A DNA stretch of 64,000 bases from Heptranchias perlo (Eukaryota), in assembly GCF_035084215.1 (NCBI RefSeq), contig NC_090364.1, forward strand, positions 4,712,001-4,776,000. The letters are read 5' to 3'. Within the stretch, counting starts at the first letter, position 1; every line of letters begins with the position of its first letter. Positions 2,461-63,006 of this stretch are shown in pieces. The notes under the pieces were generated by a model. It had not been told where the DNA came from, searched no databases, and worked only from the letters and a program-made list of their open reading frames with translations. The position numbers and the translations under genes were made by a program.

Positions 2461-5006
2461 TTAATCACTCTCCCCCAGGGTGTCCTTGTCAAACAGGTAC
2501 ACTCCCATGCCATTCTCAGGGGCTCCCAGTCTCTTCAGGTTGGTGATGTGATCTCCAAGCTTCTTGATCATCTTCACTTGTTCATCCAAGTAGTGGCTCT
2601 CCAGGAAGTCACACAACTGGAAGAAAAGATGGAAAATAGTTATGTCCAGCAAGAGATGGAGGAAGATCTGAGCTTCTCCAAGGGTTTGGATTTTAATCTT
2701 CTTGGTCTGGAGGATAGTCAAGTGGTGCACTTTAGATTGATGCATTTTATACAATAACTTTGCTCTATTAAGTGCTTAGATCCTGGGATCAGATACATTT
2801 ACTTCTAATGCAGACAGTTGGGCAATCTCCCTTTCCTGTCTCCCCTCCCCAATAAAATTTGAGCATGACACCAACAAAGCTATTGGGTATGAAGATCTTT
2901 TGAATAGGCTCAAGGACAGTAAATTTCCACCACCTCGAACTTACCCAAAGGCCCACATTAAAAACTTACATGAGGGTCTGTCCTCTCAGTGGAGAGTTTG
3001 TGCAGATCCAGCAGACTCTGGTTCACATTCTTCTCCATCTGCAGAGCTCTCTGCATCGCCTCCAGACCATTGCTCCACTCATCCTGCTCTGGCTTCTGAA
3101 AAGGGAATCAGGTCTCAGCCAGTTCACTTACAATGGATTATACAAAATACACAAGTACTGAAGGAAAATAGGGGTGAAAAGCAATCAGAGGTCCATGTTG
3201 CCATGAACCAATTGTCCCAAGAATATAGAATTACACCACCACAAGTCAAATAGTATAAATGTCTTTAAGGAGAAGTACTGAGGGAGACAGTAATAGATGG
3301 ATGTGATGATAGGGAAAGATGAAGGTGGGAGGCAGCTCATGTGGAGCATAAACACCAGCATAGACTAGTTGGGCTAAATGTCCTGTTTCTGTGCTGGACA
3401 TTCTATGTAATTATGTGCATTAGAACAAATTGCTTTAGAAATATTTAAAATTGTCCATTTAAGGGGAGCCATTCAGAAGGCCACTCCATTAAATCTAACC
3501 TTGATATCCTCCAAGATGATTCGGCCCCCACGCTGATTCTGGAATTTCAGCAGTTTCTCAGCATGCTCCCGTTCCTCATGTGACTGCTCCTTGAAGAACT
3601 CAGCAAAGTGACGCAGGGCAACATCATCCCGGTCAAAGTAATAGGACTGGTGAGATCAAAAGTAGTTGGGTATCAGAATTATCATCATGGGTATTGTACA
3701 TAAAGCCAACCTCAATATTTTGCTTTCTGTCAAGGGTTCAAGTCTCACTGAGCTTGTAGGCAGATGGTTCTGAAAACTAGCACAGGCTGACTTGCTTCAC
3801 TAACCTGGTAGAGTGAGATAATCTCACTCCTAGCAATAGGGAAGCTGGCCAATGGAAAATTACCAATTCAGCTTTGAACATGCTCAACACAATATTTCAC
3901 TTTAATCTTCACACCCAAGACTGAATTATATGTCTAGAAATTAGTGAAGGAACATAAAAGCTTACATCCTTTTCATGACTGAAATTTGAAACAAACCCCT
4001 TTCTACAACTACCACAAACAGCATTAACTTAGCACCTTCAACACTAAACATCAAGGCATTTCAGAGGAGAAACAGATACCAAGCAATAAGAGTTAGATGA
4101 CTAGAAACTGTTAGCATTTGAATGCTTTGAGAGACAGACAGAGGTGGGAAGGCAGAGGGGTTAACAGTTACACTGAGCAGGACCAAAATGGCTGAAGGCC
4201 CGACCACCAATAGAGCAAAGGCAGAGAGAGAAGACAGACAGGGACAAGCTGGTACTTAAAAAGTGAAGGTTCGGAGCATAGAAACAGGAGTGGGACATAC
4301 AGCCATTTGAGCCAACTCAATGATTTAATTAGAACATGGATCTGTACATCAACTCATCCTTCAATACCCTGACCTAACAAAAGATTTCAGTCTTGAAAGC
4401 ACCAATTAATCCCCAACATCCACAGACTTTCAAGGGAGAGAGTTCTAGATTTCCAGTACCTTTGAGGGGAAAAGTGCTTCCTCACTTACCTCCTAAATGG
4501 ACTAGCTCTAATTTAAGATTATGACCCCCCCATTGCAAGGAGAATGTGGGGAAAGACTGGAGAGATGTAGAATAGAGGGTAAGAAATATGAATCCCAGGC
4601 ATTGAATGCAGAGTGTATTGCAAAACACAACTTCAATAGAAAGCTCAGACACCAGGAAAGTGAACAATTAAGATTTAAGATTATAGAATGTGGTGCAACT
4701 ACTGCAAGGAAGAGGGAGACAGTTTGATAATGACTGGACAATAAATCACATTATATTACAGCTTTAAAAAGACATTCACCATCCATCAATTGGGGGGAGG
4801 GGGTGCAGATTAGAGAAAAGGCAATAGATGAGTTGGAGAAAACAGAATTTTGTAATGTCACATTAGAATCTCCAATGTGAAGGGGTCAAAGAAACAAAAC
4901 TCACCATAGAGAGATAAACATAGGAGGAATAGAGCTCCATATTGATCTGCTTGTTGACACCATCCTCACACTCCTTGTGATAGTTCTGACACACTTGGGA
5001 AGCCAT
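2461..5006 (-). CDS. Ferritin H/M-type subunit, gene 1 (4 exons, 176 aa)
   Basis: Exons 5006-4905, 3646-3500, 3095-2970, 2616-2461 (102/147/126/156 bp; GT-AG, phase 0 as in vertebrate ferritins). Translation [10 protein letters not shown]...[12 protein letters not shown]...LQMEK...DEQVK...[14 protein letters not shown] 5088-5081, AATAAA 2325-2320. Confidence 0.96.
3260..3420 (+). mobile_element. CR1-like LINE 3' tail in gene 1 intron 2
   Basis: GGAGCATAAACACCAGCATAGACTAGTTGGGCTAAATG..CCTGTTTCTGTG; a corresponding copy lies in gene 3 at ~13845-13995 (-). Confidence 0.6.
4277..4545 (-). mobile_element. CR1 LINE 3' fragment in gene 1 intron 1
   Basis: CATAGAAACAGGAGT...AGAGTTC...AAAGTGCTTCCTCAC...TTTAAGATTATGACCCC, the reverse complement of a CR1 ORF2 end and UTR. 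Confidence 0.6.
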
Positions 5007-5029
5007 CTTTAAATTAACTTTAACAAAAC

Positions 5030-59837: not shown

Positions 59838-61949
59838 CTGTGGTCCTATACTTGGTGAAATTGGTGGTGAATGCTTTGGTTGTGGTTATTTCCCAGTTTT
59901 CTCATCTGTTATCCATGGAAATAAAAGCTATTCATCATTGAACTGGTTTGTCTTTGTTGTATAATTAAGGATCTGATTATCCAGATCACCAAGATACCCA
60001 CTGCACCACACCCAGCTGAGTAACTTATGATCCAAGTTAGATCTTTTTCCAGGCCAAAAAATATTAAAAACCCCTCCTGGTCTAGCTTCCTCACATGATG
60101 CTGTGCCCACATCTCCCTTACTGAGGATCTTATAGAGGAGGCCTGAAATCTCAGCAACAATTTCTGCAGAAAAGGGGTTTTCATAACCAGCAAAAAGTCA
60201 TCAATATGTTGTGCTTTGAAACCACAATGTGGGGAGGGGGTGCTGGATTAGTGTTTGGAGGATGAGTATTTGTCAGGACAAGGGTGGGGATACCTACAAT
60301 TGAGGTGCCTTTGGATTAGGCTGATGGCACAAGTCATTCACTGGATTGCTTAGAGTTGTGGCCTGTATCGCGTAATGACTGACCTGGAGTCTTCCTTCGG
60401 GCAGACTGTCCTGTTTAACGTTCCCTCATCTGGGGCAATATTTGCCCATTCTTTGTGATTGAGTAAACCAGCTGTCTGTAGAAAACATCAAACTGCAGTA
60501 TATCCTGTGTGGTGTTTGCTGTTGGGTAACCTGTGCTGGTAGAAATGAAATTAAAGCAAATGATTCCTCTATCACCCAACAACTTAAACTGCCTTCCTTT
60601 TCATTATTGTATCAGTAACTCTTAAGGATCCACAAGTTAATTGTAATTCAATAGTTACTGTACATTATCATCCATACTTCAGTTGGTATTTCTAATTACT
60701 GCAACTTGTACAAAAAGACTGCCCTTAACCCACATTGTGTGGTGATTTTTGAGTTACCCAGAAATAAAACCATAAAGTTTGTGAGCCCGCTAGATAAATA
60801 TTCTTTCAAGGACAGGTAGCAGACAAGGTGAGCTGTTATACATGGTTACACTAGCTACAAGTAAAATATTGGCTTGACTGTCAAGATAGAGGATGCCTGT
60901 ATGAGCAAGATTAGATGCCATGGTAACAGGGCAGGCCCATGGGATTAGGACTACTGCTTGTGTGCAGGATAAACACCAACATGAACTGGTTGAACCAAAC
61001 AGCCTGCTTTGTTGTAAGTTTTAGGTAATTCACACTTTCTGTTCTTGAGGCTTTGTGGTCCTTCTATTCAATGACTGGTAGTTGGACCAGAGTTACAACA
61101 GAATATGAACAAAATCCAAAATATTGAAGATACCAGAAATCTCAAAAAAGCAACAGAAAATGCTGGAGATACTCAGCAGGTCAGGAAGCATCGGTTGAGA
61201 ATACGTAAGACAGTTGACATTTCAGGCATAAAACTTTTTCTCACAACAGACGTGAAACTTTCAGAAGGTGAAAAACAGTGCAAACTAAAGACTGGACTTT
61301 ACAGCTCCTAAACTCCACATCGCATTTTACAGTGATGGAGCAACAGAGTTCTGTTTGAAGCTCCCAACTGATCCAATTTCCATTTCCCCAACTCGTTGTC
61401 GGTTGGTTTGCGGACTCACTGCGGACTGTCTGGTGAAGGTCAGTCTCCTGCAATCTATTGTGCTGATCAACATTGTGAATCTGGGTATAACGGACTCGTT
61501 CTGGACCCACCAAGATGCCCATCAATTGTCCAAGAGACGGGATAACTTAGAACCGATTGTGCTCGACACCATCTACGGGATGGGATTTCCATTTGTAAAT
61601 GCATCGATCTCTTCGAGATATGTTGCGAAGCTCTGATTCTGGGAACAGAGATGTGATCAGATTCAGTTTGAGGAAAGTCAAAAAAAACCAACGGCAATGA
61701 CACCACAGAATAATCCTCCAATCCTGCCTCTATTCCAAAGCTCTGATTGGTTCTGGGAATCACACACCACCCCCTGCCCTTTGTTAATTGGTGTCTGGAT
61801 CCATGGAAGATTCCTGAGTGGCTATCAGGGATTGTCAATCATCATTGGTGATGTCATAACCTGTTTAAATGCAGGCTGTCCCAGTAGTATAAATACAAGA
61901 GCTTGTGAGGGAAGTGGTTAGGTTGTTCTTGTTAGTAGTAAAAGTTGAG

Positions 61950-63006
61950 ATGGCCTCCCAAGTGTGTCAGAACTATCACAAGGAGTGTGAGGATGGTGTC
62001 AACAAGCAGATCAATATGGAGCTCTATTCCTCCTATGTTTATCTTTCTATGGTGAGTTTTGTATTTTTGAGGCACTGTTTCAAAGTTAAGGCTGTGATGT
62101 CATTGTAGTCTAAGCAGGTAGAATCTCTCTAGGTCAATGAATTGGTTTCAGAGTGTCCCTCTGTGACTCTCCCCAATCTCAATCCAGTGAATATTCTTAA
62201 GTGATCTTGTAGACCATTTTATTAACAGACAGTTCCCTGCTCTGTCCTATTCTGAAGTTTGTTTGAAACTAACTTGAGGTTCCATAATTATAATACAGCA
62301 TTCACCTAAAAATGTATAAACCTGGTCAGCTTTTACACCAGAGAGACAATTACATTTAATTGGGTGACTAGTTAGTGCAACATTGGCTGGTTCTGGCCAG
62401 TTTTTGCCCAGTACATTTGTTAATCCTGTTATGTTGAAGTGTCTCTCTCTGAAACTGGATCTTTACACTAACAGTGACACTGACCGAATGTGAAGATTTT
62501 GCTCTTTTTTTTTCTTCACTGATTTTAAACTTCTGGGAATGAAGGTTAGTGCCACTGAAATTGTCCTAAGTGTAGGTTGAGTGCTGAAATGAAACTTTAG
62601 GGCGCAATAATGTTTTCTATTAATACAACCTTTTGTCTTGTTGAGTTACTTCACAGGGAGGGACTTTCAACATATTCAGAGAAGATCAATGAAGCAAAGT
62701 GACTTGCAAGAGTTTAAGAAATATTTCTATCAGCTCCTTAATTAAGACAAGTGTTGAGGTAGAGAATGGGTATATCTACCATGATATTTTGGCCATCTTT
62801 GAGTTGGCCTTGGATGAGATCGAGATCTAGATCTGACCTGTCCCATTTTATCTCCACAGTCCTATTACTTTGACCGGGATGATGTTGCCCTGCGTCACTT
62901 TGCTGAGTTCTTCAAGGAGCAGTCACATGAGGAACGGGAGCACGCTAAGAAACTGCTGAAATTCCAGAATCAGCGTGGAGGCCGAATCATCCTGGAGGAT
63001 ATCAAG
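61950..63006 (+). CDS. Ferritin H/M-type subunit, gene 12 (partial: exons 1-2, continues beyond window)
   Basis: Exons 61950-62051 and 62860-63006, both open with GT donors. TATA 61888. Confidence 0.9.

Follow-up and report, generated by a model that had tools for sequence, protein, structure and literature searches.

Why should a genome carry ferritin genes side by side by the dozen, and what do so many copies serve? The question is raised by a 64,000-nucleotide stretch of the genome of Heptranchias perlo (the window; C43:4712001-4776000, C43 being a contig label within this genome), which forms the right-hand end of a tandem array of 81 near-identical ferritin units. We consider it likely that the locus is a bulk-production array, encoding an oocyte ferritin that has shed its iron-responsive element (IRE) and been amplified for dosage, and that a germ-line retrotransposon takes advantage of its promoters. 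The expansion of ferritin genes is itself already known, being shark-wide and reported in a Greenland shark preprint, where the prior account of it takes up one paragraph; what is new here is the loss of the IRE and the traffic of a long interspersed nuclear element (LINE).

Searches with the exons of copy 1 recover twelve ferritin copies between positions 2461 and 63006 of the window, two on the minus strand and ten on the plus strand. Damaged exons excepted, their exons are 94-100% identical to those of copy 1, which rules out chance as the source of the copies. Nine are intact, with a start ATG, introns bounded by GT/AG and 173-176 aa of open frame, and encode proteins 92-98% identical to one another: on the minus strand copy 1 (2461..5006, 176 aa; exons 5006-4905, 3646-3500, 3095-2970 and 2616-2461) and copy 2 (7843..10894, 175 aa), and on the plus strand, each of 173 aa, copies 4 (18913..22023), 5 (24217..26969), 6 (29193..31961), 7 (34199..36938), 8 (39193..42242), 9 (44507..47876) and 11 (56797..59837). 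The remaining three also lie on the plus strand. Copy 3 (12942..14842) is a four-exon pseudogene with indels in exons 1 and 2, a lost donor and a stop in exon 4; copy 10 (50230..52894) has three exons, exon 3 having gone through a deletion of about 400 bp that leaves a frame of 131 aa; and copy 12 (61950..63006) shows exons 1-2, with exons 3-4 just past the window edge and the gene intact in the genome (176 aa). The original prediction, made from the letters of the window, was right about twelve copies and nine intact ones, but only ten of the twelve have four exons inside the window. Four-exon copies share exon lengths of 102/147/126/147-156 nt and conserved borders, the form of vertebrate H and M ferritin genes. 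A promoter of its own had been claimed for every copy; a TATAAA box lies 76-97 bp upstream in eight of the nine intact copies, copy 2 having a variant box. The promoters of the array are short and of the TATA/CCAAT type.

The array reaches well beyond the window. In the surrounding 620 kb, four divergent ferritin genes and a lone exon are followed by the 81 units, which occupy 515 kb; four exons are found in 75 of them, and 65 come through an automatic check that their frame and splice sites are sound. It had been predicted to run on past the right edge, which it does for about 6.4 kb (taking in the remainder of copy 12 and a further gene), but it extends far longer, about 445 kb, to the left. 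An exon-4 23-mer has 166 exact matches genome-wide (none for the reversed control), and among the first 100 listed 73 fall on C38, 26 on C43 and one on C3. A C38 sample of 190 kb picked around such matches holds 19 genes, arranged in cassettes of a few genes that are 98-99% alike. On C5 there is an intronless, poly(A)-tailed ferritin copy with the 3' UTR type of window copies 4-11, and on C3 ferritin exons 3-4 are joined; both imply germ-line transcription.

These genes have parted with the usual iron switch. A canonical IRE is a stem-loop in the 5' UTR with a CAGUGN loop, a paired upper stem and a bulged C, and the array does not show this form: an Rfam scan of the window (E<=1) gave no IRE and no match of any kind, and a direct pattern test found a paired IRE loop in none of 99 array-type 5' regions (80 on C43 and 19 elsewhere), with both controls pairing 5/5. 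In an IRE scan of seven loci, only an H-chain gene on C12 and the single gene 24 kb left of the array scored. Seven of the 80 C43 5' regions, that of window copy 1 included, hold a broken remnant in which the 5' arm is kept and the 3' arm broken. In copy 1 (5029..5055, minus strand) the loop is altered, the 3' arm is unpaired, Rfam gives no match, and folding yields -0.7 kcal/mol versus -9.8 and -11.8 for the two intact IREs; three remnants were folded and none takes the IRE form. Because such remnants persist, the ancestor must have had an IRE, and array-type ferritins, as judged from their 5' regions, have lost it. Loss of the IRE frees ferritin translation from control by iron regulatory proteins (IRPs), and in the array it would release translation from iron control. 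With a decay intermediate still visible, the loss offers a testable model, that of an egg ferritin which no longer answers to iron and whose output grows with gene dosage. It converges on snail yolk ferritin, whose 5' UTR is described as lacking an IRE and which resembles the array in being egg-directed, the oocyte role of the array being our own inference; unlike the array proteins of 173-176 aa, the snail protein is described as secreted and as carrying a signal peptide plus an insertion of 42 aa; they have neither (PMC10799875).

A second peculiarity lies at the promoters. Beside many ferritin copies sits a 6.8-kb repeat with two ORFs (open reading frames); of these, ORF2 carries endonuclease (APE) and reverse transcriptase (RT) domains in Pfam and is 50% identical over 1300 aa to the ORF2 of Xenopus Tx1. 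By these features the repeat is a Tx1-clade LINE, and its dispersed copies have the poly(A) tail, 5' truncation and target-site duplication expected of one; the idea of the C38 cassettes riding on a DNA transposon or Helitron was discarded, the repeat being a LINE. Among 19 long copies in ferritin-centred DNA, 18 are antisense, either facing a ferritin promoter head-to-head or belonging to a tandem run that ends there, and the 5' end of the copy or run falls 244 to about 400 bp upstream of the ferritin ATG (244-347 bp for full-length head-to-head copies); the nineteenth has its 5' end beyond the sampled stretch. Both ORFs are open in six of the 19. Insertions broke copy 3 and three other units. 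The window itself holds the LINE as 3' fragments only, all on the plus strand unless stated: an old fragment at 5302..5463, antisense to copy 1 and 296-457 bp upstream of its ATG (80% identity), which is common to the subtype with the IRE remnant; old fragments at 11707..12287 between copies 2 and 3 (11876-12287 plus, 11707-11879 minus); a young 5'-truncated insertion at 12641..12882 (96% identity) that ends 60 bp before the copy 3 ATG, at the TATA position; and an old fragment at 18016..18357 upstream of copy 4 (77% identity).

Dispersed copies reveal where the LINE has been launched from. We sampled 30 of 75 dispersed 3' ends, and in six the poly(A) is followed by ferritin-promoter DNA read away from the gene; reversed tags, used as a control, had no match. 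Five of these tags start at -302 to -337 and one at -110; one of the six runs past the stretch inspected. Since daughters elsewhere carry them, LINE copies at ferritin promoters are identified, on the evidence of their 3' flanks, as germ-line source elements, and tags that name the source locus provide a natural lineage-tracing system. A second tag type is present at five of the 30 ends (four via alignment, one short tag by eye). It has 58 matches genome-wide, 33 of them along C23, and is the TATA/CCAAT promoter belonging to a multicopy gene that encodes trefoil, ZP-N and ZP-C domains, as checked at three of the 33 loci; trefoil-plus-ZP proteins are components of the egg coat (zona pellucida). 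On C49 such a gene points away from tandem LINE copies that are split by promoter pieces, the geometry found at ferritin, the 4.3 kb with the first junction being outside the DNA seen. A third source-type flank occurs at two of the 30 ends. Two apparent tag matches (L142 and L148) were dropped as LINE remnants rather than promoter, L119 has no LINE match, and L118 consists of fragments only. The trefoil-plus-ZP family, which is ZP4/ZPB-like, is itself amplified, over C23:1.7-30.2 Mb in duplicated units of more than 5 kb, and is also found on C49.

Does the LINE seek out such promoters, or has it merely prospered where it happened to land? The family may be drawn to the promoters of amplified oocyte genes, preferring the open promoters of genes very active in oocytes and being transcribed there, so that germ-line activity of the array promoters would add a second layer, that of LINE traffic. 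In its fullest form, which we advance tentatively and regard as possible rather than probable, sharks would amplify oocyte genes (IRE-free ferritins and zona pellucida genes) into large arrays with a common TATA/CCAAT promoter type, and a Tx1 LINE family specialised on these promoters would home head-to-head to a place immediately upstream of the core promoter, launch by its divergent transcription in the oocyte, leave the gene unbroken and spread cassettes by recombination. A LINE 5' UTR motif has 56 of its 58 genome-wide matches within ferritin-bearing intervals or contigs, a count that must be discounted on two grounds: membership was judged by interval, not per promoter, and many of the C38 copies are segmental duplicates 98-99% alike, so that far fewer independent insertions are involved. 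For the ORF1 motif (129 matches), 85 of the first 100 listed lie in ferritin-bearing regions; 3' motifs are scattered (490 and 236 matches genome-wide). One 3' motif has 75 of 214 matches on C1-C37, at unrelated A-rich sites, which shows that the LINE is not confined to these promoters and, with the use of several promoter sites, led us to reject an exclusive single-site target of strict sequence specificity.

The main competitor, unlikely in our judgement yet deserving to be taken seriously, is that the LINE has no insertion preference: it would land at random, and copies that came to rest at a strong germ-line promoter would become sources and be multiplied with the array. Target-site duplications of 12-15 bp at unrelated A-rich sites, seen in 13 of the 22 dispersed copies with both ends in view, suit this explanation, as does the inflation of counts by segmental duplication. 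Three observations resist it. Old and young truncated fragments, unable to be sources, also cluster in array promoters; the 20 matches to the exact 3' motif in the 515-kb array, collapsed to their 7 distinct flanks, still reach about 14 per Mb where the genome as a whole has 0.15 per Mb; and one site near -315/-333, common to two promoter subtypes, has been reused, two LINE copies there showing duplications of about 20 bp. The LINE offers a clear test of whether a vertebrate LINE seeks the promoters of the most active oocyte genes.

Elsewhere in the genome, sampled full-length copies mostly have another 5' UTR, and several have another common 3' flank; a copy on C30 is of the ferritin type. 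The sister form with the other 5' UTR and one common 3' flank (L086, L088, L097, L099, L100, L104) lies mostly near the contig ends of C13, C16, C32, C37 and C49, and an Rfam scan of four of its flanks gave no match. A clean 3' subfamily marker was sought and none was found, ferritin-linked and other copies interleaving in a tree whose bootstrap had not converged.

Insertion beside strongly transcribed multicopy genes is familiar from fission yeast Tf1, Dictyostelium TRE5 and R1/R2 in rDNA, and 3' transduction by L1 leaves flank tags that trace daughters to source copies. These cases differ from the shark LINE in being other element classes or in having RNA-gene targets, and among promoter-seeking or host-transcribed retrotransposons we know of none at the amplified oocyte protein genes of a vertebrate. 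Closer relatives share with it two ORFs, APE and RT domains, a poly(A) tail, tandem insertions and a multicopy target; those described in the Tx1-clade report target the Tx1D transposon (Tx1), U2 snRNA (Keno) and microsatellites (Kibi and Koshi), and the classes that it gives are RNA genes, microsatellites, satellites and other transposons (PMC4494074). Unlike these, the shark LINE is found at the promoters of protein-coding genes that have been amplified, where it uses several sites rather than one base, with much off-target insertion; if the preference is real, promoters of amplified protein-coding germ-line genes would join the known classes of vertebrate LINE target. Our literature searches, which had most subscription journals outside their reach, and for repeats Repbase as well, turned up nothing on the loss of the IRE from shark ferritins, on a LINE at the promoters of ferritin or zona pellucida genes, or on exon-confined homogenisation in shark ferritin arrays.

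In which tissue, then, are the genes used? Five sequencing runs, none of them recorded as RNA, contain part of copy 5, and four were compared. In X2, X3 and X5 contigs pass over each of its three introns at GT..AG, and in X1 over two, so array transcripts are spliced and the expression expected of intact copies is borne out. Exon depth is 1.7e5-6.4e5 in X3 and X5 versus about 40-300 in X1 and X2, which share their sample with X3. Depth summed over contigs gauges expression poorly, and reads from all paralogues pile onto copy 5; the roughly thousandfold difference between runs of one sample suggests strong tissue restriction. An X5 contig joining exon 2 to exon 4 indicates that the form of copy 10, with its in-frame loss of exon 3, may be transcribed.

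The original prediction had proposed a high-demand tissue such as oocytes, blood or immune organs. Of these the ovary is the most likely, by analogy with the Greenland shark, whose largest ferritin cluster is described as having ovary-specific expression (10.1101/2024.09.09.611499), and from the retrocopies and the zona pellucida link; nothing points to blood or immune organs. Ferritin transcripts are also reported to be abundant in vertebrate ovaries (PMC1488847). Copy number would supply mRNA, and oocytes would stockpile ferritin for iron storage and for protection from iron-driven oxidation.

A general antioxidant or deep-water adaptation, with broad expression directed against reactive oxygen species (ROS), or else a role in blood or immunity, is an improbable substitute. 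The hadal snailfish does have a strongly expressed tandem ferritin expansion, of 14 fthl27 copies whose expression is high in most tissues and which reduced ROS in 293T cells; the copies there are described as recent, however, and here there are 81 units in one array, no fewer than 166 motif matches and expression that is very uneven (PMC10746142). Intact ferroxidase ligands and the low-level spliced contigs in X1 and X2 would also suit a broad antioxidant use, but the difference between runs of one sample and the ovary-specific expression in the Greenland shark do not. Nor does habitat help, as protein clusters of the array type include shallow-water genera.

Several points pull against the oocyte ferritin reading, and we set them out together. 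Genome-wide, Rfam gives two IRE_I matches, in the C12 gene and in the single gene 24 kb to the left of the array, but of 1.7 million candidates that search scored no more than 82. For X3 and X5 the tissue is off record, the RNA status is guessed and the depth measure is poor. The word oocyte rests on another species and on indirect signs. Ten of the 65 intact copies are altered at Glu62 or His65, a sign that part of the family is decaying or changing. Finally, descent of the array from its IRE-bearing neighbour as direct parent, our first idea, is not borne out, the protein tree described below not placing that neighbour as the array's sister.

That an IRE-free oocyte ferritin has been amplified as working genes, as the idea of dosage amplification holds, agrees with 65 of 81 units being intact, with the spliced transcripts and with the pattern of substitution. 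Over 2016 pairs of distinct array coding sequences mean pS is 0.103 and mean pN 0.023, a pN/pS of 0.22, and many intact copies are under purifying selection. Exons are homogenised within the lineage and introns are not: in window copies exons are 96.9% identical and 17-31% of the shorter intron is alignable, at about 80%, and across the array four-fold sites are 92% alike versus 39-54% for intron flanks, in an ungapped comparison in which indels depress the flank figure. Types of 5' UTR and of C-terminus combine in mixed fashion across copies. Unequal crossing-over or exon-confined conversion is probably the cause of the exon likeness, and we infer exon-confined exchange together with birth and death. 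Conversion mediated by cDNA is disfavoured, no array unit showing precise intron loss.

Amplification could instead have been mostly selfish or neutral, with LINE-mediated unequal recombination multiplying cassettes of which few copies matter. The C38 cassettes of a few genes adjoin the LINE, 16 of the 81 C43 units fail the automatic test, and LINE insertions have disrupted units, all of which fits; the low pN/pS with 65 intact units, the large clusters in many sharks and the lack of a long LINE alongside most C43 units do not, and for the locus as a whole we think this account a poor one, although it may be what produced the scattered C38 set. An assembly artefact, a few real genes inflated by mis-assembly, is barely credible, for although five of the 65 intact units have a counterpart matching them along the entire gene at 99.5% or better (30 of 65 at 98% or better) and two unplaced contigs repeat C38 cassettes, window copies vary in intron length with introns mostly unalignable, the 65 comprise 64 distinct coding sequences (62 distinct proteins), there are no N gaps in the 620 kb, and other sharks are similar in number.

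What kind of ferritin is it? As predicted, equivalents of the seven ferroxidase ligands E27, Y34, E61, E62, H65, E107 and Q141 (the list being that of the original prediction and of general background) and the CDFLE motif are kept in all nine intact window copies, as are the three-fold channel residues H118, C130, D131 and E134, residue numbers having been verified by aligning them with an H chain of macaque, which is 70% identical. Among the 65 intact array copies Glu62 is present in 55 and His65 in 61, and the other five ligands are invariant. By their residues, then, the array genes are ferroxidase-type ferritins, about 70% identical to mammalian H chains, and identity with the L chain (FTL) was rejected, the ligands being retained and not lost. 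The units with changes at Glu62 or His65, in exon 2, lie on C43 at 4346821, 4363004, 4373800, 4390687, 4401534, 4434361, 4545130, 4652017, 4676539 and 4698518; this recurring subtype may represent either decay or a low-ferroxidase subunit emerging within the array.

An M-type label had been suggested from the acidic EQSHEERE segment. The mark of M-type chains is a set of acidic nucleation residues at 57, 60 and 64 beside the ferroxidase centre; E57 and E64 are present in the array type, 64 of 65 intact copies have His at position 60, and Glu57 also occurs in this genome's H-chain orthologue. The segment is thus not diagnostic and the label is unsupported. In a tree of 45 proteins, array-type sequences form a clade (99/96) together with proteins of several shark genera, within which the 11 sampled array copies of this genome cluster (97/93). 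Chimaera and tetrapod H chains are joined by the C12 gene (93/87) and not by the array type, which is therefore not an FTH1 orthologue, and the IRE-bearing gene beside the array sits in a separate shark and ray clade (100/98). The phylogeny proposed earlier thus gives the array a shark-wide clade of its own, distinct from H chains, in a tree that held no teleost M or L chain.

The family is an old one. Array-type protein clusters have 127, 138 and 54 members, and the 15 listed for each include many shark genera, which runs counter to the narrow sense in which the family had been called lineage-specific; the tree supports a cartilaginous-fish source. The array belongs to an old family found across sharks, with well over 100 members in each genome. 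The ferritin section of the Greenland shark preprint gives 155 FTL and 179 FTH1 copies there, lying in three clusters that the white shark shares (10.1101/2024.09.09.611499). The likeness, as far as that section describes it, lies in hundreds of mostly full-length copies in a few old clusters common to shark lineages. It names FTL and FTH1, whereas the array here is neither an FTH1 orthologue nor ligand-less, and the section is silent on IREs, homogenisation and LINEs. Automatic FTL, FTH1 or M labels on such genes are unreliable.

Divergent ferritins stand beside the array. One at C43:4209094-4217811 (minus) is 55-59% identical per exon to the array type, has several ligands changed and no IRE pattern, and forms a long branch in the tree; it is possibly an L-like chain. 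Another, at C43:4257259-4261141 (plus), is intact, with basic residues at 57, 61 and 140 and Gln at 65. A four-exon gene at C43:4249345-4254198 (minus; exon 1 at L008:3941-4198) has an N-terminal extension of about 55 aa with nine basic and no acidic residues, also found in proteins of other shark genera; the extension resembles a mitochondrial presequence, a signal peptide being less likely, and the gene is a candidate intron-containing mitochondrial ferritin, in the tree unrelated to the mammalian one. Between two divergent ferritins, L005:3035-6120 is open for about 3 kb in three minus-strand frames and is probably a tandem repeat. A Pfam scan of 150 of 408 flank ORFs for neighbour genes gave only pieces of reverse transcriptase or endonuclease and two weak, uninformative matches. 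Glycogen synthase is present on C43, C12 and C27, a slight indication of paralogy between C43 and C12. Three vertebrate-like ferritins on very short bacterial-labelled contigs (P0014, P0096 and P0151) are probably contamination in public records. Within the window there are also two inverted repeat pairs of about 400 bp, one at 19494-20440 in intron 1 of copy 4 (98%) and one formed by 10-414 and 17598-18002 (96%).

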